A stretch of DNA of 14,794 nucleotides from Candidatus Diapherotrites archaeon CG08_land_8_20_14_0_20_30_16 (GTDB lineage: Archaea; Iainarchaeota; Iainarchaeia; Iainarchaeales; 0-14-0-20-30-16): assembly GCA_002779075.1 (NCBI GenBank), contig PEXK01000044.1:1-14794 (forward strand), written 5' to 3'. The notes beneath the pieces are model-generated. The model was not told where the DNA came from. It ran no database searches and saw nothing but the letters and a program-made list of their open reading frames with translations. Positions 1-14,794 of the stretch are shown here, piece by piece. Position numbers and translations under genes: made by a program. Position 1 is the first letter of the stretch. Each line of letters opens with the position of its first letter.

Positions 1-27
1 TGATGCAGTTTGGTGGAGGGTGATTTC

Positions 28-762
28 ATGATTAAAGCAATAGTTTTTGATTTGGATAACACATTAATGGATTTCTTGGCAAGAAAAGAAAAATCAATTG
101 ATGCAGCAATTAATGCAATGCATGATGCTGGACTAAATATTTCTTTTAAGAAAATAAAAAAAGAAATTTACAAAATATATGATACTGGATTTAATGTTGA
201 AGATCAACTGGTATTTCAAAAATTCTTGAAGAAATACAAAAAAGAAGACGATTTGAAGTTGATTGCAAAAGCAGTATTTGCATATAGGCGAATTAAACAA
301 GCAGAAACACACACTTATCCACAAGTAAGAAATGTTTTATTGCAAATAATTAAGAGAAAAATACCTATTGGTATAGTTAGTGATGGCCCAAAACTGTCTG
401 TTTGGATAAGGTTAACAGAATTAGGCATTGATGATTTTTTTGATTTTGTTATTGCTTTTGATGATACTGGTGCAAATAAATCGACAGATGTTCCATTTAC
501 AAAAGTAAAAACTCTTTTAAAGTATAGACCTGAAGATGTTTTGTTTGTTGGAGATTGGCCTGAGAGAGATATTTTTGGGGCTAAAAGAAATGGTTTTAAA
601 AGTTGTTTTGCAGCATATGGTTATTATGGCAGATCTCTTCCTAGGAGAGTTACACAAAAAGAAATCTCAGCAATAATTAAAAAATACAAACCAGATTATG
701 TTCTAAATAAATTTAGTGATATTTTGAATGTATTAGGAAAAGAAAATAAATGGAGGAATTAA
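28..762 (+). CDS. HAD-superfamily hydrolase (phosphatase-like)
   Basis: ORF 10..762. It has FDLDNTL (HAD motif I, DxDxT), VSDG (motif II) and K...GDWPERD (motifs III/IV). GGAGG at 15-19 precedes the ATG at 28, so I prefer 28 over the TTG at 10. Confidence 0.8.
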   Translation: MIKAIVFDLDNTLMDFLARKEKSIDAAINAMHDAGLNISFKKIKKEIYKIYDTGFNVEDQLVFQKFLKKYKKEDDLKLIAKAVFAYRRIKQAETHTYPQVRNVLLQIIKRKIPIGIVSDGPKLSVWIRLTELGIDDFFDFVIAFDDTGANKSTDVPFTKVKTLLKYRPEDVLFVGDWPERDIFGAKRNGFKSCFAAYGYYGRSLPRRVTQKEISAIIKKYKPDYVLNKFSDILNVLGKENKWRN

Positions 763-763
763 T

Positions 764-2305: not shown

Positions 2306-2747
2306 AGGTGATATTTTGTTTGTAAGAGTAACTATAGTAGACAAATCGTTGCCTATGCCAAAATATCATACAGAAGGCAGTGTAGGTTTTGATTTTTATT
2401 GTAGAGAATCCTGTGAGATACCCCCCAAAGAATTTAAATTAATACCCCAAAATCTTATTGTCGAAACTCCTAAAACTCATGCATTATTAATTTTTGCAAG
2501 AAGTTCTTTACACAAAAAAGGTTTGTTATTATTAAATGGTGTTGGTGTTGTAGATCAAGATTTTTGTGGCCCTGAAAATGAGATAAAAGCAATACTTTAT
2601 AATTATACAGATACTATAGTTAAAGTAGAGAAAGGCGACAGATTAGTCCAAGGATTATTTTTAGATGTTTTGATTCCTGAATTTGAAGACTGTCCACAAA
2701 TAAAGGAAGTAAGCAGAGGTGAAATAGGTTCAACAGGGCATAGGTGA
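2295..2747 (+). CDS. dut: dUTP diphosphatase (trimeric dUTPase family)
   Basis: All five dUTPase motifs are recognisable: GSVGFDF, ARSSL, GVVDQDFCG, DRLVQ and C-terminal SRGEIGSTG. The start is uncertain. TTG 2295 overlaps the metG stop by 11 nt. TTG 2316 lies just after AGGTGA (2306-2311) and is an equally plausible start. Confidence 0.8.
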   Translation: MSFKGDILFVRVTIVDKSLPMPKYHTEGSVGFDFYCRESCEIPPKEFKLIPQNLIVETPKTHALLIFARSSLHKKGLLLLNGVGVVDQDFCGPENEIKAILYNYTDTIVKVEKGDRLVQGLFLDVLIPEFEDCPQIKEVSRGEIGSTGHR

Positions 2748-2751
2748 TTAA

Positions 2752-3720
2752 ATGAAATTTTCAATTTATGCATTGATAATTTGTTTTCTTTTATTTTTTG
2801 GGGTATATCTTGTGAACTTGTGTATTGAAAAAGTAACTTATGAGCAAGTTATTTTAGAAGATACTGGCATAAAGCAAACTAATTTGTATCCTACAGGTTA
2901 TATGTTTTTAGCAGACAAACAAAGAGATTCTTATGATATTGAGAGCTTTGTATATCTGCTACAAAACTCAAACTACGATGAATTAAAATCATTGCAAACA
3001 TCTTTGTTAGTAATTGATCCTGAGAATGGTGATGGTGAATTACAATTTACAAATGAGCAAATAAAAGACTTGCACAGTAACAAGAAATATGTAATTGCAT
3101 ACATTGACATTGGTGAAGCAGAGAATTGGCGAAGTTATTACAAAAATATGCCTAAAGATATAATAGGAATAGAAAATCCAGATTGGGAAGATTGTTTTTA
3201 TGTTGCTTTCTGGCAACCTTATTGGAAACAATTAACCTATTCTCGTATAGCAAATTATTTGGATAATGGTTATGATGGTGTTTATTTAGATCTGATTGAT
3301 GTTTATGAATATTGGCAAGAACAAGGTGTAAAAGACGCAAAGCAGAAAGCAATTGATTTTGTTAAAGATATTTCTGTGAAAGTAAAAGCAAAGAACTCCA
3401 ATTTATTAGTTATTCCACAGAATGCATTAGAATTATTAAAAGAAAATGATTATATTAATTACATTGATGGTATTGGTGCTGAAAGCACATTTTATGATAC
3501 TGATAAATCAGCATCTTGGTCTAAATGGGATTTAGAATATTTAGATTATGCCATATCTAAGGGACGGTTTGTTTTAAGTATAGATTATTCAAAGAAGTTA
3601 AACAATAGGTGCAATTTTGTTAATAAAGCAAAAGCACACAAGTTTGTTCCTTTTGTAGGCCCTAAAGATTTAGATTTATTTGTCCACTTTTCCTGTCCAG
3701 AAATAGGATACAGTCAATGA
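2752..3720 (+). CDS. Membrane-anchored TM1410/MJ1477-family putative glycoside hydrolase (GH114-like TIM barrel)
   Basis: N-terminal hydrophobic segment (IYALIICFLLFFGVYLVNL). The motifs LLVIDPENGDGE..., VIAYIDIGEAENWRSYY and GYDGVYLDLIDVYEYW match my recollection of the PF03537/TIGR01370 family signatures. No search was run. Confidence 0.6.
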   Translation: MKFSIYALIICFLLFFGVYLVNLCIEKVTYEQVILEDTGIKQTNLYPTGYMFLADKQRDSYDIESFVYLLQNSNYDELKSLQTSLLVIDPENGDGELQFTNEQIKDLHSNKKYVIAYIDIGEAENWRSYYKNMPKDIIGIENPDWEDCFYVAFWQPYWKQLTYSRIANYLDNGYDGVYLDLIDVYEYWQEQGVKDAKQKAIDFVKDISVKVKAKNSNLLVIPQNALELLKENDYINYIDGIGAESTFYDTDKSASWSKWDLEYLDYAISKGRFVLSIDYSKKLNNRCNFVNKAKAHKFVPFVGPKDLDLFVHFSCPEIGYSQ

Positions 3721-4796
3721 TATTTATGGAAAATAATTTAGTCTTAAAAAAAATATTAAACAAAAGCTGGTTTGGTGGTGTTCGCGATGATAGTAATCTT
3801 TTCTTTTTTGATTTGCGGGCATTAGGAGAAGCAAAATATATCCCCAAAGAATATTGTGTGATGCCAAAATTATTATTGCCAAAAGACAACAAAATGATTA
3901 GATGTTTTTCTAAAGAAGATGCTAAGAAATTCCATTTAACAACTTATAAACGGTTGAAACAAAACCCAAAAGTATTTGCTAATTTGTTTGAGTCTGATTT
4001 TGAACTTTGGAAAAATGCAAAATTACTAAAGGTTGTAGATTCTAAGACTTTTCTTAAAGCAGTAGAAATATATCAGAAACACTGTGCTAATTTTATGTTG
4101 GGTATTTCTTTTGGCATGGTCTGTGGTGATCACAAAGATTTGTTAAATGCAAAATTAGTTGCAAGACTATATAAACAACACGACAAATGGCGCAACACAA
4201 TAACTTTTTATGAAGAACAATTGCTTAAGAAAATAGAGGATTATTTAATTGCGAATGATTTGAAAACTTTTAACACAATTTCTTTTACTGAGTTTAAAAA
4301 ATTTTGCAAGGACAAAACTGCTTTGACAGATTTAATTAAGAAACGACATAATAAGAAATTAGTTTATGTTTTTTATGGTAAACATTCTTCTGTGATTACC
4401 AATCTTGTTGTAATAAATGCTATTGTGAATCATGTATTTCTGCAACAAATTTCAAAATCAAAAGAACTAAGCGGTAGAGTCGCATTTCAAACAAAAGAGT
4501 TTGTAGAAGGTAAAGCTGTTCTTATTCCTACACAAAAAGAATTAGATAAATATACTGCAAAAGATTTGGAAGGAAAAATTGTAGTTGCATTGCAAACAAC
4601 TCCGCATTATACCCCCTACATACATAAGGTTAAAGGAATTATCACTGATGAAGGGGGAATAACATCTCACGCAGCAATAGTGTCTAGAGAATTAGAAATA
4701 CCCTGTATTGTTGGAACACAAAATGCTACAAAACAGATTAAGACTGGCGATAAAATAAGAATGAATTTAAAAACAGGAAAAGTAATTATATTATAA
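3717..4796 (+). CDS. Protein with a PEP-utilising-enzyme mobile (swivel phospho-histidine) domain and an uncharacterised helical N-terminal region
   Basis: The C-terminal ~90 aa (GIITDEGGITSHAAIVSRELEIPCIVGT) is the classic PF00391 swivel domain with the TSH phospho-His site. I recognise no ATP-grasp or PEP/pyruvate-binding TIM domain in the first ~270 aa. The ATG overlaps the upstream stop (ATGA). Confidence 0.75.
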   Translation: MIFMENNLVLKKILNKSWFGGVRDDSNLFFFDLRALGEAKYIPKEYCVMPKLLLPKDNKMIRCFSKEDAKKFHLTTYKRLKQNPKVFANLFESDFELWKNAKLLKVVDSKTFLKAVEIYQKHCANFMLGISFGMVCGDHKDLLNAKLVARLYKQHDKWRNTITFYEEQLLKKIEDYLIANDLKTFNTISFTEFKKFCKDKTALTDLIKKRHNKKLVYVFYGKHSSVITNLVVINAIVNHVFLQQISKSKELSGRVAFQTKEFVEGKAVLIPTQKELDKYTAKDLEGKIVVALQTTPHYTPYIHKVKGIITDEGGITSHAAIVSRELEIPCIVGTQNATKQIKTGDKIRMNLKTGKVIIL

Positions 4797-4804
4797 GTGA
4801 AATT

Positions 4805-5530
4805 ATGGTCACAAGATACAAACCAAAACAGATTTATTTGAAACATGGTAATTTGGTTAAACAATCAAGAGCTATGGCAATAGTTGCAAGGCATAGTATT
4901 AATGCTGGTTTTAATCTAGATTTAAATGGAAGACGACAAGCTTTTTGGGCAGGATCTAAATTGCCTTCTGGTTTTGAGATAATTTCCGCAGGCTCAAAAT
5001 TTGATAGAACACTAGAAACAATAGATTATGCAACACAAGGTTATGATTCAGCAAAAACTGGGAGAACAACAAAAGGAATTGCAGATGAAAGATTGAAAAA
5101 AGGGCAGTTAACAGATGCAGAAAAAGCTGAACTTCAGACAAGAAATAGAATTAATGAAATTTTAAGTGCTTTAGATGCAAGAAAACCAATTCAAGAATTA
5201 AAAAAATTGGGACAACAACTTTTAAAATTTATGATTACAGAAATTGCTAAGTCAGTAAAACAACAAAGAAAACCTTTGGGTTTATATGTTACCCACGAAG
5301 GTGCAGAAATAGCAATATTTTCTGCATTAGGAATTATAAAAGAGAAAGAAGACATTGAAAAGATATTTGGAAAGCGAAAACCTACAAAATTAGTTAAAGA
5401 TGCTGGCCCAAATTTAACACATACAGAAGGCATTTTATTTTACTTTTTGCAAAATGGTAGAATTATAATGTCATTTAGAAAAAAGAAATTTGATATTACA
5501 CGATTTATAGAAAATAACATAAACTATTAA
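4805..5530 (+). CDS. Hypothetical protein, possible divergent histidine-phosphatase superfamily member
   Basis: IVARHS..N (RHG-like motif with S for G), L.GRRQA...G.KL...EIISAGSKFDRTLET (resembles LTxxGxxQA...SSPLxRAxQT) and YVTHEGAEIAIFSALG (resembles VSHGGxIRALL). Motif-level resemblance only. Confidence 0.45.
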   Translation: MVTRYKPKQIYLKHGNLVKQSRAMAIVARHSINAGFNLDLNGRRQAFWAGSKLPSGFEIISAGSKFDRTLETIDYATQGYDSAKTGRTTKGIADERLKKGQLTDAEKAELQTRNRINEILSALDARKPIQELKKLGQQLLKFMITEIAKSVKQQRKPLGLYVTHEGAEIAIFSALGIIKEKEDIEKIFGKRKPTKLVKDAGPNLTHTEGILFYFLQNGRIIMSFRKKKFDITRFIENNINY

Positions 5531-5558
5531 TAAAAAAAAGAAAAAAGAATGGCAGAAT

Positions 5559-7394
5559 TTATTTACTGCCACCAGTTCCAAACAGTCTTGAGAAGTTAAA
5601 GAAGTTTCCGAACTTGTTTGCTTCATTATTTAGTTCTTTTGTTTGTTCTTCCAACACTTTTATTGTTTCTGGATCATTAATATTTCTATCTACTATTCTT
5701 TGTTTAATTGCTTTTAACTTATCTGCTTTTTCTTGCATTTTATTTGCATAATCATCATTGCCGAATAAATAGCTGAAGAAACCTAATTCTTTTTGGTCTT
5801 CAAGGGTATTATCTATTGTGTCACCAAGTTCATAAGCAAGTGCAGGATCAATAGATAACCATTTATCTGCTAATTTATATAAATCATGATCTACTAGTTT
5901 CACTCCAAATTGCCTGCATAAATTATTAACCATAAATTTAGCTACAGTTTCTGGGTTTGACTTAGCTGTATTGCAGTTTTCGACCATTTTTTGTTTAGAA
6001 GCACAATCTAATGCTGCATTTGCTAAACATTTAGCGCCTTCAAGTTTCATCATGTTTACGCCACTCATCATATTAGATGATTCTATTTTACACTTATAAT
6101 TTGCTTTTTCTTTCATGTCTTCAATATTAATCATCTCTTGTGGTAAATACATTTCAATAATTTCATCATCAGTTAAGTCGCACATCATTTCTGGACTGCC
6201 TTGAGGTCCACCACCCATACCGGGTTGCTGGGGGCCTATTACTGAAGATTTATAAAAATCGTTTTTTGTACAATCATCATGACAGTTCTCAGGATTTTCT
6301 CCTAAATCAGGTTCACAATAATTGTTGCCACAAATTGCTTTTTTTGGTTGTTCTGATGCTAAACCAAATAAGCCAACAGGATTTTTTGGAATAATTGTAA
6401 TTGCTGTTTTTGTAGAAACTGGTTCAGAATCAGATTCCTTTTGTTCTGGCTCTGATTCAACAGGTTGAGTTGTTGTCTCGTCAGGTTGTGTTGGTTCACT
6501 AGGTTGTGTTATTTCATCAGATTGGGTGGTAGTGGTAGGAAGCTTCTCAGTCTGGTCTTCTGAATTTTGTTGGTTTATTTCATCTTGCTTTGGTTCTTTT
6601 ATATCTTCTTTATATTCTGGTTCTTTCCACTCTTCTTTATATTTGGATTCTTTTATTTCTTGTTTTACTTCTTGCATTTTAGGTATATAGAAATCAGGCA
6701 ATTTTATTTCTGGGCCAGTGGTATCTTTAAATTTCTTTAATTCATTACACTTTGCTCTAAAATTTGAAAGTTGTGATTTTATTGATGTTTTTGCTTTTTC
6801 TGCATAAGCTTTTTTATTTTCAATTTCTTTGTTGAATTGTGCTTTGCAAATATCTATCATAAGATCTTCTGTCAAATCATTAGATGTTAATTTAGAGGGG
6901 TCTTTTCCCATTTTCTTTAAAATTATTTTTGCTTCTGGTGGCAAAGGAAGGTTTCCTTTCTGAAAGTTTTTACAAAATGATTCAGGATTGCATTCTTGCA
7001 CCTGAGACTCAAATTTTTTGCAGACATCTGATGTTTCTTCTGCATCTTTTATAATGTCTACTACTTTAGAAACAAGTTCTTCTTTATTTTTATCGCATTT
7101 TGTAATAACATCATTGCTATTAGAATAAATCCACATGTACACTGCAGTCATCCCTTCCATAAATTTCTGCTGAGCTACATATTCTGGATCAGCAAAACTT
7201 GAAAAAGGTAAACCGAAATCTAAATTAGAACCATTGTTCATTGGTGGTTGGCCTCCTGGCCCAAAACCTTTAGCAGGCTCACCAATTGGTGGTATTTCAT
7301 CAGGACCTTGTGAGCTAGTTTCAGCAAACACACCCCCAACAAGTAATGACAACATAAACAAAGTAAAAAATACTGATAAAATTTTCAATTGCAT
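5559..7394 (-). CDS. Secreted or surface Cys-rich protein with an acidic Pro/Thr/Glu-rich linker (hypothetical)
   Basis: ORF 5559..7409. I prefer the ATG at 7394 (MQLKILSVFFTLFMLSLLVGGVFA-ETS, signal-peptide-like) because GGAGGG sits 7 nt upstream of it. I count 16 Cys. A low-complexity KE/PT/QP linker spans about 6377-6662. No C-terminal TM segment and no recognisable domain. Confidence 0.7.
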   Translation of the reverse strand: MQLKILSVFFTLFMLSLLVGGVFAETSSQGPDEIPPIGEPAKGFGPGGQPPMNNGSNLDFGLPFSSFADPEYVAQQKFMEGMTAVYMWIYSNSNDVITKCDKNKEELVSKVVDIIKDAEETSDVCKKFESQVQECNPESFCKNFQKGNLPLPPEAKIILKKMGKDPSKLTSNDLTEDLMIDICKAQFNKEIENKKAYAEKAKTSIKSQLSNFRAKCNELKKFKDTTGPEIKLPDFYIPKMQEVKQEIKESKYKEEWKEPEYKEDIKEPKQDEINQQNSEDQTEKLPTTTTQSDEITQPSEPTQPDETTTQPVESEPEQKESDSEPVSTKTAITIIPKNPVGLFGLASEQPKKAICGNNYCEPDLGENPENCHDDCTKNDFYKSSVIGPQQPGMGGGPQGSPEMMCDLTDDEIIEMYLPQEMINIEDMKEKANYKCKIESSNMMSGVNMMKLEGAKCLANAALDCASKQKMVENCNTAKSNPETVAKFMVNNLCRQFGVKLVDHDLYKLADKWLSIDPALAYELGDTIDNTLEDQKELGFFSYLFGNDDYANKMQEKADKLKAIKQRIVDRNINDPETIKVLEEQTKELNNEANKFGNFFNFSRLFGTGGSK

Positions 7395-7557
7395 TTTAGT
7401 TCCCTCCAAAATATAATATTCCGTATCCTTTTATATTAGAAATTAGAAAAGAATAGTTCATACAAGTATATATACTTTTTGAATTTCTTATTATCAACAG
7501 TTTTTTATTCAACAGCATTTTAATAATACACGAAATTATACTGTTTAGTGTGATAAA

Positions 7558-8211
7558 ATGGAATCCATTAGTAACTTGCAAGACTTAAAAAAAGAGTTTC
7601 AACAAATATCTGATAATAACCTAGCAATGGATAAAAATAGTCTGTCTAGTGTGGGGTATATGGATATTGAAACAACTGGCTTGAGTTCTGAGCACAATCA
7701 TATAACTCTAATTGGTTTGCATTCTAGTGATGCAACAAGTGTTTACATTGACACACAGAATCACAAAAAAGCTTGTCAAGACATTGATAAGTGTAGGTAT
7801 TTGGTTACTTTTAATGGCAATAGATTTGATTTGCCCTTTATTAATAAACATTATGGCCTTCAATGTAACTTCAAATCAATAGACTTGATGTATTTATTTT
7901 GGCAAATGGGTTATTATGGCGGATTAAAGAAGGTTGAACAGCAATTGGGATTAAGCAGAATGTCAGAAGTTGAAGGCATGAAAGGTTCAGAGGCAGTTAC
8001 ACTTTGGCATAAGTACAAGGCCGGAAATCAAGAGGCTCTTAACAAATTAGTTAATTATAATATAGAAGATATTGTTAATCTTGAGGTTCTTTTTAATTTT
8101 GCTTTGCAAAGAGCACAAAACAATACTATTTCAAGCGATGAGTTGAAGCAAAACAAGAAAAACATTATGAATAGAATTAAGAATAATGAAAGTCTTTATA
8201 TTTGGGATTAA
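7558..8211 (+). CDS. RNase-H-like (DEDD) 3'-5' exonuclease domain protein, YprB/COG3359-like
   Basis: MDIETTGL (Exo I), VTFNGNRFDLPFI (Exo II) and YNIEDIVNLEVLF (Exo III). A TTTAATAATA TATA-like box lies ~30 nt upstream and there is no SD, so the transcript may be leaderless. Confidence 0.7.
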   Translation: MESISNLQDLKKEFQQISDNNLAMDKNSLSSVGYMDIETTGLSSEHNHITLIGLHSSDATSVYIDTQNHKKACQDIDKCRYLVTFNGNRFDLPFINKHYGLQCNFKSIDLMYLFWQMGYYGGLKKVEQQLGLSRMSEVEGMKGSEAVTLWHKYKAGNQEALNKLVNYNIEDIVNLEVLFNFALQRAQNNTISSDELKQNKKNIMNRIKNNESLYIWD

Positions 8212-8222
8212 GAGGTGTATTT

Positions 8223-10241
8223 ATGAGTGGTTTATCTTTTAAAGAAGAAATTTTACAAGGTATTCCTGAGGTTTTACCAGAATTAAAACCTTATGATCTC
8301 AAAATAAATCACGCTCCAAAAAGAAAAGATATTTTAACACATAAAGAAAAGGAATTAGCTTTACACAATGCCTTAAGATATTTTAAAGAGAAACATCATG
8401 CAATTCTTGCTCCTGAGTTTGCAAAAGAATTGGAAACATATGGTAGAATTTATATGTATAGATTCAAACCAGAATATGAAATTTATGCTCGACCAATTAA
8501 TGATTATCCTCACAAATCAATACAAGCAGCAGCAATTATGCACATGTATTTTAATAATTTAGATCCAAAAGTTGCTCAACATCCAGATGAATTAATTATA
8601 TATGGTGGAAATGGTGCAGCATTTCAGAATTGGGCTCAATTTAGATTAACAATGCAGTATTTAGCAACAATGACTGATGAACAAACTTTAGTTATGAATT
8701 CAGGTTTGCCTTTAGGATTATTTCCATCACATAAAGATGCACCAAGAGTTGTTATATCAAATGGAATGGTTATTCCAAATCATTCAAGTTTAGATGATTA
8801 TGAGAGAATGAATGTACTAGGGGTTTCACAATATGGACAAATGACTGCTGGTTCTGCAATGTATATTGGCCCACAAGGAATTGTTCATGGAACAACAATA
8901 ACTTTATTGAATGCAAGTAGAAAAATTGATAAAGATGCAAATGATTTAAAAGGAAAAGTATTTGTAAGTTCTGGTTTAGGTGGTATGTCTGGTGCTCAAG
9001 CAAAAGCAAGTGTAATTGCAGGTGGCATTGGTGTTATTGCAGAAATAAACCCAAAAGCAATTGAAAAAAGACATGAACAGAAATGGTTGGATGAAATTCA
9101 TTCCGATTTAACTAAATTATTGGAAAGAATAAATTTAGCAAAAGAAAAAAAAGAATCTGTATCTTTAGGATATCTAGGAAATATTGTTGATCTGTGGGAA
9201 TTTTTAGCAAAAGAGAATATTAATATTGATATAGGTTCGGATCAAACATCATTGCATAATCCTTTTGCTGGTGGTTATTATCCTGTAGGATTATCTTTTG
9301 AAGATTCTAAAAAAATGATGACTGAAAACCCAGAAAAATTTAAAGAGCTAGTACAAAAATCTTTAATTAGACAAGTTATTGCAATTAATAAATTAACATC
9401 AAGAGGAATGTATTTCTTTGATTATGGTAATGCATTTTTATTGCAAACAAGTAAAGCTGGTGCAGATATAATGAATGATGATAAAACTAAATTTAGGTAT
9501 CCATCATATGTTGAAGATATTATGGGACCGATATGTTTTGATTATGGTTTTGGTCCATTTAGATGGGTTTGTACATCAGCAGACAAAAAGGATTTAGAAG
9601 TAACTGATAAATTAGCTGCTGATGTTTTAGAAGAGCAAGCAAAAAATGCATCAAAAGAAATTAAACAACAAATATTAGATAATTTAAAATGGATAATTGA
9701 AGCACAAAAAAATAATTTAGTTGTTGGTTCACAAGCAAGAATACTATATTCTAATTGTGAAGGTCGAACTAAAATTGCAAAAGCATTTAATGATGCAGTA
9801 AACTCGAGAAAGATTTCTGGTCCAGTTGTTATTGGAAGAGATCATCATGATGTTTCTGGAACTGATTCCCCATATAGAGAAACATCAAATATCTATGATG
9901 GTTCGAGTTTTACTGCAGATATGGCAATACAAAATGTAATTGGTGATTCTTTTAGAGGTGCAACTTGGGTCAGTATTCACAATGGTGGCGGAGTTGGCTG
10001 GGGTGAAGTTATAAATGGCGGATTTGGAATGGTTTTAGATGGTTCTCAAGATTCAGATAGGAGATTAAATAGTATGATTCACTTTGATGTTAATAATGGT
10101 TTGGCAAGAAGAAGTTGGGCCGGTAATTCAGGTGCTCAATATTCAATAAAGAATGCAATGCAAAATGAGCCAAAGTTAAAGATTACTGTTCCATATAATG
10201 CACATAAAGAGCTAATTAAAAAGGCTTTGACTAAAAACTAA
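8223..10241 (+). CDS. hutU: Urocanate hydratase (urocanase), long ~670-aa form
   Basis: Diagnostic urocanase blocks: IYGGNGAAFQNW, GQMTAGS.MYIGPQGIVHGT, GLGGMSGAQ (NAD site), DQTSLHNP, GRDHHDVSGTDSPYRETSN and HNGGGVGWG. GAGGTG (8211-8216) precedes the ATG at 8223, so I prefer that to the TTG at 8202. Confidence 0.9.
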   Translation: MSGLSFKEEILQGIPEVLPELKPYDLKINHAPKRKDILTHKEKELALHNALRYFKEKHHAILAPEFAKELETYGRIYMYRFKPEYEIYARPINDYPHKSIQAAAIMHMYFNNLDPKVAQHPDELIIYGGNGAAFQNWAQFRLTMQYLATMTDEQTLVMNSGLPLGLFPSHKDAPRVVISNGMVIPNHSSLDDYERMNVLGVSQYGQMTAGSAMYIGPQGIVHGTTITLLNASRKIDKDANDLKGKVFVSSGLGGMSGAQAKASVIAGGIGVIAEINPKAIEKRHEQKWLDEIHSDLTKLLERINLAKEKKESVSLGYLGNIVDLWEFLAKENINIDIGSDQTSLHNPFAGGYYPVGLSFEDSKKMMTENPEKFKELVQKSLIRQVIAINKLTSRGMYFFDYGNAFLLQTSKAGADIMNDDKTKFRYPSYVEDIMGPICFDYGFGPFRWVCTSADKKDLEVTDKLAADVLEEQAKNASKEIKQQILDNLKWIIEAQKNNLVVGSQARILYSNCEGRTKIAKAFNDAVNSRKISGPVVIGRDHHDVSGTDSPYRETSNIYDGSSFTADMAIQNVIGDSFRGATWVSIHNGGGVGWGEVINGGFGMVLDGSQDSDRRLNSMIHFDVNNGLARRSWAGNSGAQYSIKNAMQNEPKLKITVPYNAHKELIKKALTKN

Positions 10242-10254
10242 ATATATTAGAGAT

Positions 10255-10494
10255 TTAGAGTTCTTCTAATTCTTTTTTTATTGTTTGTTTGTCAATACCT
10301 GTTTGATCTAAAAGAATATTAATTATGTTATTTAGTGTTCCTTGTGCGATTGGGTTGTGATTAGGTACAATTATAGTTTTGTTAATAGTTTCATTTTTTA
10401 ATTTAATGTGACTTCCAATTTGACTAATGATAAAATAGTTCTTTGTTTTAAGGTATTTAATTATATCTTGTGCAGACAAAATTAATTTAGGCAT
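10255..10494 (-). CDS. hicA: HicA-family toxin (mRNA interferase)
   Basis: 79 aa. GSHIKLKN...IVPNHNPIAQGTLNNIIN..GI matches the HicA/YcfA pattern (GSH...P.H....GTL..I). It overlaps the hicB stop by 8 nt. Confidence 0.8.
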   Translation of the reverse strand: MPKLILSAQDIIKYLKTKNYFIISQIGSHIKLKNETINKTIIVPNHNPIAQGTLNNIINILLDQTGIDKQTIKKELEEL

Positions 10495-10693
10495 AAATAG
10501 TCTCTGTTGTAGGCATATCTAATAATAATTCTATTTTTGGATCATTGTTATCAAAATGGAGTCTTACTGCATCTAATATATTTTTGAATAGTTCGTCCAA
10601 TGTATTGCCCTGTGTTGTAATTCCGGCTTCTAATGCAACAGCAACCCAAACACCATCTTCATCTTTTTCTATTTTAAAAACTAAACGATCCAT
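10487..10693 (-). CDS. hicB: HicB-like antitoxin, short form (UPF0150 N-terminal domain only)
   Basis: MDRLVFKIEKDEDGVWVAVALEAGITTQGNTLDELFKNILDAVRLHF is a typical HicB N-domain. The track ORF 10487..10840 extends upstream into the tRNA-Lys flank and repeat, so I truncate it to the internal ATG at 10693. Confidence 0.75.
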   Translation of the reverse strand: MDRLVFKIEKDEDGVWVAVALEAGITTQGNTLDELFKNILDAVRLHFDNNDPKIELLLDMPTTETIYA

Positions 10694-10743
10694 AAAACCA
10701 CAATATATGTTATTGTAAGGAACTATAAAAATCTGTTGTTTGT

Positions 10744-10759
10744 ATGACCCGGACGGGAT
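10744..10759 (-). repeat. Orphan copy of the tRNA-Lys 3' end (direct repeat of 10841-10856)
   Basis: ATGACCCGGACGGGAT occurs exactly at 10744-10759 and 10841-10856. The proximal copy is the last 15 nt of tRNA-Lys plus 1 flanking nt. Confidence 0.9.
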
Positions 10760-10840
10760 CCTCAAAACCCTTTTTAGAAAAGCGTTTATGGAAAACCCCA
10801 ATCCACATTTGTGTATTGAGTGGAATTTGCAATTCCACAA
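10760..10840 (-). mobile_element. 81-bp non-coding segment bracketed by the tRNA-Lys 3'-end repeats; possible integrative-element scar or miniature element
   Basis: Flanked by perfect 16-nt direct repeats. It contains the hairpin GTGGAATT-TGC-AATTCCAC (10820-10838), which ends 3 nt from the tRNA discriminator. No credible ORF. Confidence 0.35.
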
Positions 10841-10841
10841 A

Positions 10842-10915
10842 TGACCCGGACGGGATTCGAACCCGCGACACTTGGATTAAGAGTCCAATGCTCTACCAGA
10901 CTGAGCTACCAGGCC
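10842..10915 (-). tRNA. tRNA-Lys (anticodon CUU)
   Basis: Hand-folded cloverleaf on the - strand: GGCCTGG TA GCTC AGTCTGGTA GAGC A TTGGA CTCTTAA TCCAA GTGTC GCGGG TTCGAAT CCCGT CCGGGTC A. 74 nt, no encoded CCA, two G-U pairs in the acceptor stem. Confidence 0.9.
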
Positions 10916-10917
10916 CT

Positions 10918-10949
10918 ACACCCCTTTTTCTTTGGAAAGAAAAAGGTGT
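10918..10949. other. Long A/T-tract palindrome directly 5' of tRNA-Lys
   Basis: ACACC(CC)TTTTTCTTT GG AAAGAAAAAGGTGT gives a 14-bp stem with a 2-nt bulge. It starts 3 nt upstream of the tRNA-Lys 5' end. Confidence 0.6.
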
Positions 10950-11018
10950 AAAGTTTATCCCAAAAAGAAACTGTGGCATAGCCACTATTTTTCTTTCTTT
11001 TAACATACCGTGTGTTTG

Positions 11019-11046
11019 CTTTCTTTTTCTAAAAGAAAGAAAAAAC
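11019..11046 (-). terminator. T-run plus hairpin immediately 3' of tRNA-Ser
   Basis: On the - strand the tRNA-Ser end is followed by TCCAG TTTTTT CTTTCTTT TAGAA AAAGAAAG. This is an oligo-T (archaeal-type termination signal) plus an 8-bp hairpin. Confidence 0.45.
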
Positions 11047-11050
11047 TGGA

Positions 11051-11133
11051 CGCAGGAAGAGGGATTCGAACCCTCGCCTCCTTTCGGAGTTTAGATTAGC
11101 AGTCTAACGCGTTAACCACTCCGCCATCCCTGC
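11051..11133 (-). tRNA. tRNA-Ser (anticodon GCU), class II with long variable arm
   Basis: GCAGGGA TG GCG GAGTGGTTAA CGC G TTAGA CTGCTAA TCTAA ACTCCGAAAGGAGGC GAGGG TTCGAAT CCCTC TTCCTGC G. 83 nt, no CCA. Confidence 0.9.
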
Positions 11134-11137
11134 TTAG

Positions 11138-11153
11138 CCTTTTTCTAAAAAGG
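11138..11153. other. Perfect palindrome CCTTTTT-CT-AAAAAGG in the 23-nt Val-Ser spacer
   Basis: Read directly. It lies 5 nt upstream of the tRNA-Ser 5' end. It resembles the palindromes at 10918-10949, 11019-11039 and 10768-10783. Confidence 0.6.
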
Positions 11154-11156
11154 ATA

Positions 11157-11229
11157 TGACCCTGGCCGGAGTTGGACCGGCGATCTTCGCCACGTCAAGG
11201 CGACATCATAACCACTAGACCACAGGGTC
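11157..11229 (-). tRNA. tRNA-Val (anticodon GAC)
   Basis: GACCCTG TG GTCTAGTGGTTATGAT G TCGCC TTGACGT GGCGA AGATC GCCGG TCCAACT CCGGC CAGGGTC A. 73 nt. The T-loop reads TCCAACT, with C at the normally U55 position. Confidence 0.85.
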
Positions 11230-11287
11230 CATGTATTTTAAAAAAAGTTATTTTGTCAAAATACTTTGTTTTGATACAAAGCAAAAA

Positions 11288-11304
11288 CGTCCCGTGCAGG
11301 ATTC
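11288..11304 (-). repeat. Orphan copy of the tRNA-Asn 3' end (direct repeat of 11394-11410)
   Basis: CGTCCCGTGCAGGATTC occurs exactly at 11288-11304 and 11394-11410. The proximal copy is the last 17 nt of tRNA-Asn, from the T-loop GAAT through the discriminator. Confidence 0.9.
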
Positions 11305-11393
11305 TAAGAACCTTTTGCATGATGTTTAAAAGCAAAATGTTCATGAAAAAACAAAGCCGTACACGGCTTTAGTGGAATGCAAGATTCCACAAG
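11305..11393 (-). mobile_element. 89-bp non-coding segment bracketed by the tRNA-Asn 3'-end repeats; possible integrative-element scar or miniature element
   Basis: Flanked by perfect 17-nt direct repeats. It contains the hairpin GTGGAAT-GCAAG-ATTCCAC (11372-11390), which ends 3 nt from the tRNA discriminator, plus a second hairpin with a T-run. Confidence 0.35.
11346..11370 (-). terminator. Stem-loop plus T6, terminator-like, downstream of tRNA-Asn
   Basis: The - strand reads AAAGCCGT GT ACGGCTTT G TTTTTT, an 8-bp GC-containing stem followed by an oligo-T. Confidence 0.5.
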
Positions 11394-11465
11394 CGTCCCG
11401 TGCAGGATTCGAACCTGCGACCTCTCGATTAACAGTCGAACGCACCACCGCTGTGCTAACGGGAC
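11394..11465 (-). tRNA. tRNA-Asn (anticodon GUU)
   Basis: GTCCCGT TA GCAC AGCGGTG GTGC G TTCGA CTGTTAA TCGAG AGGTC GCAGG TTCGAAT CCTGC ACGGGAC G. 72 nt, no CCA. Confidence 0.9.
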
Positions 11466-11570
11466 AAATTTCTTTGCAAAAAAACTAACAAAAAGATTGA
11501 ATTTAGAAATAAATTCTTTTATATATAGGTTATATAATCAGAAGAGATAATATTTTAAATCTGAGTTATA

Positions 11571-11579
11571 TTTATAAAT
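11571..11579 (+). promoter_or_regulatory. TATA box (TTTATAAAT) for the SRP RNA gene
   Basis: It lies ~25-30 nt upstream of the first paired nucleotide of the RNA (11601). The same ATTTATAAAT sequence is found upstream of ftsZ. Confidence 0.55.
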
Positions 11580-11600
11580 GAATCTTAATACAAAATATAT

Positions 11601-11869
11601 GCAAGGAACTAGATCGGGGGGTTAGTGGTCCCCTACCCAGAGAATCCACTTTACTCTGGATCGAAAAGCATTGAGGCGGCCCAAAGGTAATTATTGCATC
11701 AAAAATTTTGCCTTGAGGATCAGACTGCAAATGCTTTCTATTTAGAAACCCGCTAGGACAGGAATGGAGCAACGGTAACTATTTAGAAGGTAGTTTGTGG
11801 CCACCTGGTCTGAGTAAAATTTTGATTAACAATAGTTGTCCTGTAAGTCCACTCAATGAAGTTCCTTGC
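11601..11869 (+). ncRNA. Signal recognition particle RNA (archaeal 7S/SRP RNA) candidate
   Basis: A terminal helix forms between GCAAGGAAC (11601-11609) and GTTCCTTGC (11861-11869). Two 5' hairpins have complementary loops (GTGG 11625-11628, CCAC 11646-11649), as in the Alu-domain loop-loop contact. A long imperfect helix 5 includes CATTGAG 11669-11675 paired with CTCAATG 11852-11858 and AUCAGAC paired with GUCUGA. AGGACA-GGAA-TGGAGCAAC (11755-11773) closely resembles the conserved helix-8 motif (E. coli 4.5S AGGUCC-GGAA-GGAAGCAGC). A T5 run follows at 11874-11878. Hand fold only. Confidence 0.7.
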
Positions 11870-12068
11870 GCTCTTTTTGATACTATTTTTATTAATATTT
11901 TTTATTGAAACTGATTTTTTATTTATTAAGTCAAATAGGGATGCAATTTTAACACATCTTAAAGATTTACCTCACATTAAACATAACACCCCTTTTTCAT
12001 CAAATCATAAAGCTACATAAAATACAAAAAATTACGACTTAAACATAATGATAAAAATATGCAAAAGA

Positions 12069-12078
12069 TTTATAAATA
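12069..12078 (+). promoter_or_regulatory. TATA box (TTTATAAATA) upstream of ftsZ
   Basis: It lies ~55-64 nt upstream of the ftsZ ATG, consistent with a ~30-nt leader carrying the GGGAGGGAG SD at 12120-12128. Confidence 0.5.
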
Positions 12079-12132
12079 CTGCGAAGATATTGTATATAAT
12101 TTTTCTTGTTATTTAAGTTGGGAGGGAGAAAT

Positions 12133-13194
12133 ATGAAGTCAATGATAAAAGACGCTACTGAAACCAAGACTAAAATGGTTGGTGACGAGGGCGTTTCAGA
12201 ATTTGGCACACCAAAAATTATGGTATTAGGTGTGGGTGGTGGAGGTTGTAACAGTATATCCAGAATTGCAGAAATGGGAGTATCTGGTGCTCAATTAGTT
12301 GCTGTTAACACAGATAAGCAACAGTTAGCTGTTTTAAGTGATGATATTGTAAAGATTTTGATTGGTAAAAGTGTAACTAGAGGATTAGGTGCTGGAGGTT
12401 ATCCAGAAGTTGGTGCAAAAGCTGCGGAAGTAAGTAAATCTGCTTTGGAAGAGGTTTTGCGCGGTGTTGATATGTTGTTCCTAACTTTAGGTTTAGGTGG
12501 TGGAACAGGAACAGGTGCTGGTCCAATTATTGCAGATATTGCTAAACAACAAGGTGCAATTGTAATTTCTATTGTAACTTATCCATTTAAAATGGAAAGA
12601 GCAAGAATAATTAAAGGTGAAGAAGGATTAGGAAAATTGAAGCAATACTCAGACACTGTTGTTGTTATTGATAACAATAGATTAGTTGAGTTAGTGCCTA
12701 ACTTGCCAATTCAGGATGCTTTCAGAGTTGCTGATGAAGTAATCTCAAGAACAGTTTCTGGAATAACTGAAACTATTACTCAGCCATCTTTGATTAACTT
12801 GGATTATGCTGATGTAAGAGCAATTATGACAAACAAGGGATTGTCTGTTATAGCTGTTGGTGAAGGTAAAGGTGTTGACAGAGTTAAAGAAGTTGTTGGT
12901 GACACTTTGAAGAACTCATTGTTAGATGTTGATATCTCTGGTGCAAATGGTGTATTGATCCACATTACTGGTGGCCAAGATTTGACTTTAGGTGAAGCAA
13001 ACTCAATTGGTGAGTTGTTGACTGAAAACTTAGATCCTAAAGCTGCAGTAATTTGGGGTGCAAGAGTTGACCCAACTTTCGAGAACAAGATTGAAGTTAT
13101 TGCTATTTTCACAGGTGTTCACAGTCCATTCATAAAAACAGATGATGACAGAAGACCAAGTAGCAAAGATGATCTAGACTTAGACTATCTTTAA
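12133..13194 (+). CDS. ftsZ: Cell division GTPase FtsZ (archaeal type)
   Basis: GVGGGGCN, the tubulin signature GLGGGTGTGAGP, NTD.Q.L, VIDNNRL and ADEVISR. A strong SD (GGGAGGGAG) precedes the ATG at 12133, so the TTG at 12106 is rejected. Confidence 0.95.
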   Translation: MKSMIKDATETKTKMVGDEGVSEFGTPKIMVLGVGGGGCNSISRIAEMGVSGAQLVAVNTDKQQLAVLSDDIVKILIGKSVTRGLGAGGYPEVGAKAAEVSKSALEEVLRGVDMLFLTLGLGGGTGTGAGPIIADIAKQQGAIVISIVTYPFKMERARIIKGEEGLGKLKQYSDTVVVIDNNRLVELVPNLPIQDAFRVADEVISRTVSGITETITQPSLINLDYADVRAIMTNKGLSVIAVGEGKGVDRVKEVVGDTLKNSLLDVDISGANGVLIHITGGQDLTLGEANSIGELLTENLDPKAAVIWGARVDPTFENKIEVIAIFTGVHSPFIKTDDDRRPSSKDDLDLDYL

Positions 13195-13206
13195 GTAAAT
13201 CAAGTG

Positions 13207-13250
13207 AAAGGGATTTTTCCCTTTTTTCTTTTCTTTTTTTATTTTTTTAA
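13207..13250. terminator. Hairpin plus extended T-tracts between convergent ftsZ and hicA-2
   Basis: AAAGGGA TTTT TCCCTTT (13207-13224) is followed by TTTCTTTTCTTTTTTTATTTTTTT. Confidence 0.55.
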
Positions 13251-13252
13251 AA

Positions 13253-13480
13253 TTATATTTTTTCTAAAAACTCATCTCTTGTAATTCCCAAGTCTTTTTT
13301 AATTATTTTGTTAAGTAGTCCAGAACCTATTTCTTCTCCAGAATGGCAAGGAATAGTGGTTATTCTTCCATTTGGGTGTTTGTATACAATGTGACTTCCA
13401 GTAGTATGACTATAAAAAAATCCGAATTTCTCAACTATCTTTGCAACTTCTTTTCCAGTTAGTCTTGGAAGGTGTGACAA
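13253..13480 (-). CDS. hicA: HicA-family toxin (second copy)
   Basis: 75 aa. LTGKEVAKIVEKFGF...TGSHIVYKHPNGRITTIPCHSGEEIGSGLLNKIIKKDLGI is the HicA pattern. Confidence 0.85.
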   Translation of the reverse strand: MSHLPRLTGKEVAKIVEKFGFFYSHTTGSHIVYKHPNGRITTIPCHSGEEIGSGLLNKIIKKDLGITRDEFLEKI

Positions 13481-13482
13481 AA

Positions 13483-13692
13483 TTACACCTCTATTTGTTG
13501 TACTCCCACAAATTGTTGAAAAACATCTATTTTGCTACTGTTTGTTTCAAGGTACGCTTGAATTGCCTCTTTTGTTCTTTCTATTAATTCATTCATAGTT
13601 TTTGCCTGTGTATGACAACCAGGTAATCCTAAGACTTCAGAAACTAACCAGCCATCTTCATCTTTTTCTATAATTAGAGTATATTTTGCCAT
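13483..13692 (-). CDS. hicB: HicB-like antitoxin, short form (second copy)
   Basis: MAKYTLIIEKDEDGWLVSEVLGLPGCHTQAKTMNELIERTKEAIQAYLE is a HicB/UPF0150 N-domain. It ends 2 nt upstream of hicA-2. Confidence 0.8.
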   Translation of the reverse strand: MAKYTLIIEKDEDGWLVSEVLGLPGCHTQAKTMNELIERTKEAIQAYLETNSSKIDVFQQFVGVQQIEV

Positions 13693-13887
13693 ATATTAAT
13701 ATTCTTTTTAGAATATATAAATATATCTAATATTGTAGTTCAGTAAAAATTAACTTTAAATACTCTCTGATTTTATTTATTTCTTTTAATTTTGTCAAAG
13801 TAAAAGTAGATCTCTTTTTATATTTGTACTGATTTTATATTCAAATGGAATAAATTTGTATCGAAAAAAGTTTCTTTGAGTTGTAAT

Positions 13888-14262
13888 ATGGTAAGCACAG
13901 GAGAATTTCCAATATCTGCTAATGCATATTTGTCAGGAGAAAAATATAGAATGGACAATTTTGAGAATAATGAATTAGTAAACCGGAAGATTATAAAAGG
14001 ACCGGTTATTTACGATTATTATGCAATGCTTCCCGAAGAAGAAAGACTTCCAGAGTATGAAGAATGTGCATGGTTGAAATCAATAGATGATTATTATAAT
14101 GATCCTGATACATCATCAGATTCATATCTTGATTTTTTTAATTTGTTTGATTCTTTTTTGGATCATAAAGAAGCAGGTCTTGCAACAATAAGTTGTAATT
14201 GTGATAGCATCAATGAGAATTCCTTTGATACTTCTGGAACAATTTGCAATGTGTCTTCTTAA
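13888..14262 (+). CDS. Hypothetical small acidic protein
   Basis: ORF 13876..14262. The first ATG is at 13888. No SD and no recognisable motif. It is D/E/Y-rich and may not be expressed. Confidence 0.35.
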   Translation: MVSTGEFPISANAYLSGEKYRMDNFENNELVNRKIIKGPVIYDYYAMLPEEERLPEYEECAWLKSIDDYYNDPDTSSDSYLDFFNLFDSFLDHKEAGLATISCNCDSINENSFDTSGTICNVSS

Positions 14263-14297
14263 GCTGTTTTTTAATTTAGATATCTTTTTAAACTTTT

Positions 14298-14333
14298 CTA
14301 TAGGGTATTATATTTGACTATAGTTAACTATAG
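14298..14333. promoter_or_regulatory. CTATAG repeats and a 16-bp perfect palindrome; candidate operator/promoter of the relBE-like operon
   Basis: CTATAG occurs at 14298-14303. CTATAGTTAACTATAG at 14318-14333 is its own reverse complement. These lie 29-64 nt upstream of the antitoxin ATG. The SD GAGGTGA is at 14350-14356. Confidence 0.45.
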
Positions 14334-14361
14334 CGAGATACAGATACCGAGGTGAATCATA

Positions 14362-14583
14362 ATGGCTACTACTATTATGATAAGTAATGATTTGAAAGCA
14401 GAATTAATTGCGTTAAAATTATTTTCTAGCGAAACATATGAAGATATAATAAAAGATTTAATAGATGATAGAAAAGCATTAAGTAAAGAAACATTAAAAG
14501 ATATAGAAGAAGCTAAAAAAGACATTAAAGCAGGAAGATATTACACTTTAGATCAACTAAAAAAAGAGTATGGTATTAAATGA
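14362..14583 (+). CDS. Putative antitoxin (RHH-like N-terminus) paired with the RelE/ParE toxin
   Basis: 73 aa. N-terminal strand-helix pattern (TIMISNDLKAELIALK...YEDIIKDLI). The C-terminal IEEAKKDIKAGRYYTLDQLKKEYG is typical of small type II antitoxins. The stop overlaps the toxin ATG (ATGA). Confidence 0.6.
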   Translation: MATTIMISNDLKAELIALKLFSSETYEDIIKDLIDDRKALSKETLKDIEEAKKDIKAGRYYTLDQLKKEYGIK

Positions 14584-14794
14584 TTTACGAATTAATAATT
14601 CCTCCCAAAGTTAAAAAAATATTGGATAAATTGAATTATAACATGAAAGAAAAAATATTGAAATCCTTAGAAAGAATAAGAATAAGGCCGTATGACTACT
14701 TAGAAAGATCAACTAATTCACCATACTACAAATTAAGAACTGGAGATTACAGAGCAATTATTGATATTCAAGACAATAAACTTATAATATATGT
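14580..14794 (+). CDS. relE: RelE/ParE-family toxin, 3'-truncated by the window end
   Basis: My own translation, as this ORF is not in the track because no stop is reached: MIYELIIPPKVKKILDKLNYNMKEKILKSLERIRIRPYDYLERSTNSPYYKLRTGDYRAIIDIQDNKLIIY. The YKLR.GDYR.I..I motif is the RelE/ParE hallmark. Confidence 0.75.
   Translation, partial: MIYELIIPPKVKKILDKLNYNMKEKILKSLERIRIRPYDYLERSTNSPYYKLRTGDYRAIIDIQDNKLIIY

Follow-up and report, generated by a model that had tools for sequence, protein, structure and literature searches.

What is a short hairpin doing directly behind two different tRNA genes? The question is raised by a 14,794-nucleotide stretch of contig PEXK01000044.1 from Candidatus Diapherotrites archaeon CG08_land_8_20_14_0_20_30_16 (positions 1 to 14,794, hereafter the window), in which the inverted repeat GTGGAAT...ATTCCAC, here called H1, follows the 3' ends of tRNA-Lys and tRNA-Asn. 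A first-pass annotation of this DNA offered two explanations, namely a shared terminal structure abutting an attachment-site-like (att-like) core in one family of elements, or a lineage-specific signal for processing the tRNA trailer or terminating its transcript. Comparison with related archaea shows that H1 forms the terminal stem-loop, on the tRNA side, of a miniature integrase-less element and is not a general tRNA trailer signal. These elements are ~85-175 nt long and non-coding, can be stacked in tandem, and are confined to the 3' ends of tRNA genes within one clade of DPANN-type archaea.

The hairpin and the unit it belongs to

Four tRNA genes lie on the minus strand of the window according to ARAGORN and Rfam: tRNA-Asn(GTT) at 11393/4-11465, tRNA-Val(GAC) at 11157-11229, tRNA-Ser(GCT) at 11051-11133 and tRNA-Lys(CTT) at 10842-10915. 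The sequence GTGGAAT-N5-ATTCCAC is present only at 10820-10838 and 11372-11390. That the motif is confined to these two sites, as had been claimed, was confirmed: the pattern GTGGAATN{2,8}ATTCCAC matches twice in the window and not once in 200 dinucleotide-preserving shuffles. On the tRNA strand, the Lys and Asn genes continue alike, with the discriminator, any nucleotide, TT, GTGGAAT-loop-ATTCCAC and T. The identical spacing noted earlier, 3 nt from the discriminator with AA on the plus strand, holds for both window tRNAs but does not extend to relatives (whose loci or contigs are designated by L-numbers), where L005 has a gap of 4 nt and the tRNA-His and tRNA-Ile genes have one of 5 nt. The distance is close to fixed, not strictly so.

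Both hairpins are bracketed by copies of the tRNA 3' end, and these repeats are real. The Lys repeat joins 10744-10759 and 10841-10856 with 16/16 identical positions, whereas the Asn repeat (11288-11307 and 11394-11413) matches at 19/20; the second copy of the tRNA 3' end lies 97 nt (Lys) or 106 nt (Asn) downstream, and both tRNA genes are intact. The parts of the two units, all on the minus strand and listed in the direction of the tRNA, are as follows.

10842-10915, minus strand: tRNA-Lys(CTT), the target gene, discriminator A at 10842 (ARAGORN; Rfam tRNA, 69.5 bits)
10841-10861, minus strand: first copy of the Lys repeat, tRNA-Lys T54-A73 plus T74 (TTCGAATCCCGTCCGGGTCAT)
10820-10838, minus strand: H1 of the Lys unit, GTGGAATT-GCA-AATTCCAC, 3 nt past the discriminator, the left terminal structure of the insert (covariation)
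10798-10819, minus strand: H2 of the Lys unit, TCAATACAC-AAAT-GTGGATTGG, with a T.G wobble on the tRNA strand
10783-10797, minus strand: T-run and conserved CATAAAC motif of the Lys unit (GGTTTTCCATAAACG)
10770-10782, minus strand: H3 of the Lys unit, an A/T palindrome (CTTTTCTAAAAAG)
10744-10764, minus strand: second copy of the Lys repeat, a degenerate T-loop TGAGGAT and then exact tRNA-Lys 61-74
10744-10840, minus strand: the whole Lys insert, 97 nt, its end marked by the second repeat copy
11394-11465, minus strand: tRNA-Asn(GTT), the target gene, discriminator G at 11394 (ARAGORN; Rfam)
11394-11413, minus strand: first copy of the Asn repeat, tRNA-Asn T54-G73 (TTCGAATCCTGCACGGGACG)
11372-11390, minus strand: H1 of the Asn unit, GTGGAAT-CTTGC-ATTCCAC, 3 nt past the discriminator
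11353-11370, minus strand: H2 of the Asn unit, AAAGCCGT-GT-ACGGCTTT, terminator-like
11346-11352, minus strand: the run GTTTTTT of the Asn unit, directly after H2
11308-11342, minus strand: H3 of the Asn unit, GAACATTTTGC-13 nt-GCAAAAGGTTC
11288-11307, minus strand: second copy of the Asn repeat, TTAGAATCCTGCACGGGACG, 19/20 against tRNA-Asn 54-73
11288-11393, minus strand: the whole Asn insert, 106 nt, its end marked by the second repeat copy

Apart from H1, the two segments had been described as not obviously similar. This is partly right, but they align over their whole length, both with each other and with units from other contigs, and they have a common plan. Read 5' to 3' on the tRNA strand, this plan consists of the tRNA 3' end, 1-3 nt, H1, TCAA or TAAA, H2, a T-run, CATRAAC and H3 (an A/T palindrome, CCTTTT..AAAAGG), followed by 3-4 nt, a T-loop-like heptamer and a copy of tRNA positions 61-73/74. 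At ~85-175 nt the units are too short for a gene, and they contain no open reading frames (ORFs). They fold more strongly than shuffled sequence (z-scores of -2 to -4), and no inverted repeat links the left and right ends of a unit, the only inverted repeats being the internal hairpins. It should be noted that the Lys unit has one further peculiarity, an 8-nt perfect inverted repeat CATTTGTG / CACAAATG (10806-10813 / 10836-10843) that flanks H1 and pairs the end of tRNA-Lys with the loop of H2; it is not clearly conserved in L005.

In H1, across nine units, 98% of the cells are paired, five of the seven pairs show changes on both sides (seven cells), and no pair has changed on one side alone. 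None of 500 shuffles attains the observed values, and slid partners pair in 32-59% of cells. The T preceding the stem and the two outer pairs (GT...AC) are invariant, while the loops comprise 3, 4 or 5 nt without conserved sequence. G.U intermediates are missing among the seven cells changed on both sides, which suggests, weakly with nine sequences, that selection may act at the DNA level, on a palindrome or hairpin, and not on an RNA helix. H2 varies in sequence among units but keeps its pairing, with three double changes at one pair; its T.G wobbles on the tRNA strand make it resemble an RNA terminator hairpin, unlike H1. As for H3, A/T palindromes of the same type (CCTTTTT-N-AAAAAGG) are found 5-9 nt upstream of genuine tRNA genes, both in the window (10921-10950 and 11134-11156, minus strand) and in L004, L136, L141 and L208, so that the right half of the unit and the usual 5' flank of a tRNA gene look alike.

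Two other hairpins recur near tRNA genes of the clade. At 10973-10985 of the window, ~60 nt upstream of tRNA-Lys, GTGGC-TAT-GCCAC with a T-run (GTGGCATAAAGCCAC in relatives) resembles H1 in its GTGG..CCAC foot and is terminator-like on both strands; in L208 and L213 a hairpin of this type lies between tRNA-Asn/Ser and tRNA-Lys. The second, TTTGTGT-TGG(Y)-ACACAAA followed by AATATAAG, is repeated at L004 4275-4295, L004 ~4085 and L136 4503-4522. It stands 3 nt after tRNA-Asn in L004 and ~70 nt upstream of several tRNA genes, and it may be a promoter or regulator site.

Occupied and empty tRNA genes in relatives

Syntenic loci were found through homologues of the FtsZ gene in the window, which are labelled archaeon, Diapherotrites or Micrarchaeota, and genome and metagenome collections were scanned for exact matches to the pattern. 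A search with a unit profile, covering 1.73 Mb in 213 loci, gave nine matches, every one directly 3' of a tRNA gene and with H1 on the tRNA side. The exact H1 pattern is less selective. In the collections, 3 of its 52 matches are real, each behind a tRNA, and the remainder are at chance level in unrelated taxa; across the collected loci it matches 181 times, with five matches adjoining tRNA ends (1-3 nt past the ARAGORN end) and the others at chance level in unrelated organisms. The family stands behind tRNA-Lys, tRNA-Asn, tRNA-His, tRNA-Ile and tRNA-Leu, in one orientation throughout. Metagenome-assembled genomes with units include GCA_964595665.1 and GCA_030154485.1. Outside the window, the occupied genes are the following.

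L005 and L203, tRNA-Lys: unit with H1 GTGGATTT..AAATCCAC
L001 and L002, tRNA-Lys: two stacked units
L136, tRNA-His: unit, on a contig of a metagenome-assembled genome shared with L004
L165, tRNA-His: unit
L141, tRNA-Ile: unit
L213 (FtsZ 78% identical), tRNA-Leu: unit (H1 GTGGGGC..GCCCCAC) that encloses a second small element
L208 and L209 (FtsZ 77% identical), tRNA-Lys: 101-nt unit of unrelated sequence and the same plan, with three hairpins and an exact T54-A73 copy

The inserted nature of the units is evident from sister genomes with precise empty sites. In L004, tRNA-Lys joins directly to the flank that in L005 follows the second repeat copy, and alignment of these two loci shows a single gap, equal to the unit plus one repeat copy, with aligned flanks on either side; the window is occupied at the same gene. 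Furthermore, tRNA-Lys is unoccupied in L213, and tRNA-Asn is unoccupied in L004, L005 and L203. The presence of H1 is coupled to that of the repeat: H1 is always accompanied by a downstream copy of the tRNA end (a truncated second H1 in L136 is a partial exception), and tRNA genes free of the repeat, namely those for Ser, Val, Glu and Leu (L208) and the unoccupied Lys and Asn genes, are without H1. Occupied genes carry the T-loop TTCGAAT in 7/9 cases against 6/17 for unoccupied genes (counted by hand), a target preference that is only suggestive.

Within this context, the proposal that a shared terminal structure abutting an att-like core defines one element family has held up, given the homologous segments, the further units at tRNA-His, tRNA-Ile and tRNA-Leu, the empty sites and the coupling of H1 to the repeat copy. 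Two distributions would have spoken for something else, i.e., H1 scattered at random over the genome or H1 behind most tRNAs. Within the lineage, however, profile matches fall only at tRNA 3' ends, and most tRNAs are without H1, so the element reading is favoured. We are highly confident that H1 belongs to an inserted element family.

The second explanation of the first-pass annotation finds no support as a general rule, since tRNA-Ser, tRNA-Val and unoccupied Lys and Asn genes do not carry the motif, and the T-run stands behind H2, not behind H1. In a related reading, H1, H2 and the T-run might be a clade-specific trailer, processing or termination cassette of the host, with H1 acting as RNA, that has spread among tRNA flanks by gene conversion or unequal recombination. 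Such a cassette agrees with the terminator form of H2 and its T-run (in the Asn unit, H2 with GTTTTTT was detected by a terminator scan that did not report H1) and with the position of H1 upstream of the first T-run, which implies transcription with the tRNA. The cassette also agrees with the better-than-shuffled folding of the units, with hairpins at other tRNA flanks in the clade, such as TTTGTGT..ACACAAA behind tRNA-Asn of L004, and with the likeness of the unit to ordinary tRNA spacers. Nonetheless, H1 occurs only alongside a duplicated tRNA 3' end (again with the truncated L136 copy as partial exception) and is missing from most tRNAs, the difference between empty and occupied genes has the signature of an insertion and not of a conversion tract, and the missing G.U intermediates fit a DNA palindrome better than an RNA helix. 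A host cassette is therefore improbable. On the element reading, the insert would replace the native tRNA trailer. H1 is followed by TCAA or TAAA, and the first T-run behind the tRNA is the one after H2; the predicted pre-tRNA would thus include H1, as the first part of the new trailer, and H2, and would stop at this T-run. The unit, as follows from its sequence, would bring its own terminator (H2 and the T-run) for the tRNA.

The resemblance of the right half of the unit to a tRNA 5' flank raises a further alternative, in which a tRNA gene and its spacer were duplicated in tandem and the second copy then lost positions 1-53. The palindrome and few nucleotides fused to T54-73 are what such a history would leave. 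However, independent deletions at five tRNAs would all have had to stop at one and the same position, and the units are homologous across tRNAs and not to the upstream flank of their own tRNA; this homology largely refutes the idea, which has hardly any probability left.

In L001, tRNA-Lys is followed by unit 1, then an Asn 3' end, then unit 2 (H1 GTATCATT..AATGATAC) and lastly a Lys 3' end. The same contig has, at 4206-4254 (minus strand) behind tRNA-Asn, a shortened remnant of the unit-2 type flanked only by CACGGGACGT repeats, which is a decayed copy of the element type also found inside the Lys locus. At L136 4774-4793, a truncated H1 (TTGTGGAATTGCAAATTCCAA) and a T-run follow the second copy of the tRNA-His end and give a 43-nt repeat; it is probably the remnant of an older stacked unit. 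A second, hairpin-rich insertion family of ~80 nt (CAAGAAGCCAATTTT..AAAATTGCTTCAGG...) lies behind tRNA-Leu and tRNA-Asn in L209 (~2640-2725 and ~3375-3460) and is missing from the near-identical L208; a copy of it is nested within the tRNA-Leu unit of L213.

How the units might move

Genomic islands and proviruses that integrate into tRNA genes are among the closest known systems. Like them, the units are inserted in the 3' part of a tRNA gene that stays intact, have a 3' copy beginning at the T-loop at their far end, keep a fixed orientation, stack in tandem and vary in presence among related genomes. Islands with a tyrosine integrase use crossover subsites in the anticodon loop, in the T-loop or at the T/acceptor junction, regenerate the gene and leave a displaced 3' fragment (PMC4383910). 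Judged by these features, the units have the regenerated gene, the displaced fragment, the crossover subsite and the empty attachment site of the host (attB), and lack a tyrosine integrase of their own (PMC4383910). They also differ from the islands in size (~85-175 nt vs. kilobases), in the use of one backbone at no fewer than five tRNA species, and in that no free element site (attP) was found. By analogy, the unit might work like a tRNA-integrating island reduced to its two arms, standing to such islands roughly as miniature inverted-repeat transposable elements (MITEs) stand to transposons.

Streptococcal cis-mobilizable elements (CIMEs) offer a similar case, being integrase-less, flanked by att sites, arranged in tandem with related elements and presumed to depend on the enzyme of another element. 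Unlike the units, which are ~100 nt long, archaeal and multi-target, they are bacterial, kilobases in length, visibly deletion derivatives of integrative and conjugative elements, and found at a single site. MITEs share with the units their tiny size, non-coding and structure-rich sequence, non-autonomy, multiple copies, strain variability and direct-repeat flanks; the units, however, have no terminal inverted repeats (TIRs), carry a tRNA repeat of ~20 nt (13-43) instead of 2-10 bp, and lie at tRNA 3' ends only and in one orientation. Casposons, which encode a Cas1-solo enzyme, are likewise archaeal and target a tRNA 3' end, their enzyme reads a T-loop motif, and the duplication is unusually long (PMC6614799). 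Yet casposons are 8-20 kb in size, with cas1, polB and TIRs, and their target-site duplication of 14-15 bp begins downstream of the T-loop, whereas the units have neither genes nor TIRs and their duplication includes the T-loop. Identity with a casposon or a MITE was rejected because of the missing TIRs and genes.

Other comparisons are more distant. Ordinary tRNA trailer hairpins and intrinsic terminators also lie immediately 3' of tRNAs, and H2 with its T-run has the terminator form, but H1 lacks a T-run, keeps its sequence across tRNAs, is tied to the duplicated end and is missing from most tRNAs. The units differ from repetitive extragenic palindromes with their associated transposases (REP/RAYT) and from IS200/IS605 elements in that no Y1 transposase was found among 19 window ORFs and H1 lies only at tRNA ends in the 213 loci. 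A tRNA intron and a split or permuted tRNA were rejected, as the first copy alone is complete and the T-loop of the second copy is damaged. The Rfam search of 10000-12200, with E up to 1, gave as real matches only the four tRNAs and an archaeal signal recognition particle (SRP) RNA and left the units unmatched; two weak sub-threshold matches to plastid families opposite tRNA-Ser and tRNA-Asn are due to chance. Inspection of the units by eye revealed no box C/D, H/ACA or bulge-helix-bulge splice motif. Full-text searches of the literature turned up kilobase-scale tRNA islands, casposons and tRNA fragments, and no ~100-nt element at tRNA ends.

The mechanism that we prefer for the present or past movement of the elements, at an evenly balanced probability, is conservative site-specific recombination of the att type. 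The crossover would lie in the part of the tRNA gene that extends from the T-loop to the T/acceptor junction, and the recombinase would be supplied in trans, because the elements encode nothing. The most likely role of H1, which lies 2-3 bp from the end of the identity block, would be the recognition structure of the element end by the core, as a DNA palindrome or hairpin. Integration would restore the tRNA gene, with the displaced 3' fragment marking the far end, and the arrangement in L001 would result from one Asn-type element integrating into the T-loop-like site of a resident Lys unit. The repeats are consistent with this scheme. In the freshest copies (L208, L136 and Asn of L001), the block runs from T54 or G53 to 73/74, which matches the T-loop or T/acceptor-junction subsite; other copies are perfect from ~57-62 to 73/74, and the length of the block is typically 20-21 nt, with an overall range of 13-43 nt. 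The second copies have decayed faster in the T-loop part (13 events/77 nt) than at positions 61-73 (7 events/143 nt; Fisher p = 0.006, or 0.058 in a conservative count), as would follow if only the surroundings of the crossover had to stay identical.

Several observations weigh against att-type recombination. The Pfam scan of the 19 longer window ORFs found no integrase, transposase, Cas1, PolB or Y1 transposase family, and no integrase or recombinase gene lies in or beside any unit. Viral contigs, phage records and plasmid records yielded neither a circular junction nor an attP form: scanning viral contigs for H1, for an attP-like T'-X3'-H1 junction and for degenerate tRNA plus H1 gave nothing or chance matches in phage coding sequence, and a unit compared by blastn with phage and plasmid records had no match beyond the tRNA T-arm. 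Neither a copy of the tRNA end at kilobase distance nor a full-length element was found in any collected locus. Moreover, backbones that are nearly identical end in different tRNA segments: the Asn unit of the window is close to the Ile unit of L141, the window Lys unit to the His unit of L165, and the right half is common to the L005 Lys and L136 His units. Such target switching would be hard to explain if the element carries the tRNA 3' segment, as in att-type recombination. A circle of ~100 bp is also a sterically awkward recombination intermediate, and loops of 3, 4 or 5 nt in H1 are unusual for a site of a dimeric protein on double-stranded DNA. Finally, the sequence-unrelated unit of L208 has the same T54-73 duplication, which could point to a mechanism that copies the target.

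A mechanism of this kind, target-duplicating transposition, is a serious though less probable alternative. Only the unit from H1 to H3 would then be mobile; an enzyme reading the tRNA gene through its T-loop would make staggered cuts at ~53/54 and 73/74, gap repair would duplicate ~20-21 bp of the tRNA target, and H1 and H3 would be the subterminal hairpins that the enzyme recognises. If the duplication is copied from the target, the matching 3' end of the same backbone at each of five tRNA species would follow automatically. The near-constant block T54-73/74 (20-22 nt) in the fresh copies of L208, Asn of L001 and the window Asn unit, its recurrence in the unrelated family of L208 and L209, and the strict orientation (9/9 unit matches), as in casposons or Tn7, also fit. 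[quoted passage not shown] However, the unit ends have no TIRs, no transposase or cas1 gene was found in the window or in the neighbouring loci examined, and the identity block varies from 13 to 43 nt. In addition, neutral decay of a simple duplication does not predict the stronger divergence of the T-loop part in the second copy, and the arrangement in L001 requires movement of a composite element.

There is a substantial, though less than even, chance that the units represent a previously unknown class of mobile DNA: hairpin-ended elements of ~100 nt that enter the segment between T-loop and 3' end of essentially any tRNA gene and copy ~20 bp of the target on entry. The enzyme could be a recombinase or transposase of a new kind, or else belong to the host and read the DNA of tRNA genes; it would recognise H1 with its invariant GT...AC foot as a DNA hairpin.

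Neighbourhood and meaning of the units

The remaining genes of the window are chromosomal housekeeping genes and two hicAB pairs. Together with the labels of the FtsZ homologues and the archaeal SRP RNA, this marks the host as an uncultured DPANN-type archaeon. These hicA/hicB toxin-antitoxin pairs lie at 10255-10720 and 13253-13692 (both minus strand), the first directly behind the Lys unit, and the two hicB genes have a 43-nt stretch in common with 74% identity. The archaeal SRP RNA at 11602-11868 (plus strand) scores 86.5 bits, under the Rfam gathering score of 96.5; it sits between the tRNA cluster and ftsZ, a placement kept in relatives. tRNA-Val(GAC) at 11157-11229 (minus strand) has the T-loop TCCAACT, without the usual TTC, and still reaches a tRNA score of 60.5 bits; its orthologue in L001 has TTCAAAT. 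Between the dUTPase gene and the RNase_H_2 gene, the window contains a block of GH114, PEP-utilizers and ORFs of 241 and 616 aa that is absent from the syntenic loci L001 and L004. The 616-aa ORF (5559-7409, minus strand), of unknown function, holds three tandem 27-nt repeats at 6591-6671.

For annotation, the units account for short tRNA fragments that confuse the description of tRNA genes, and for population studies they are strain-level markers in uncultured archaea. Because one backbone can stand behind no fewer than five tRNA species, an enzyme that recognises generic features of tRNA genes is indicated, which would be of interest for the biology of archaeal mobile elements and as a possible targeting tool. 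If the elements are active, integration into tRNA genes would be open to parasites roughly a hundred times smaller than the smallest tRNA-integrating islands known so far, and such parasites would occur even in the very reduced genomes of DPANN archaea.

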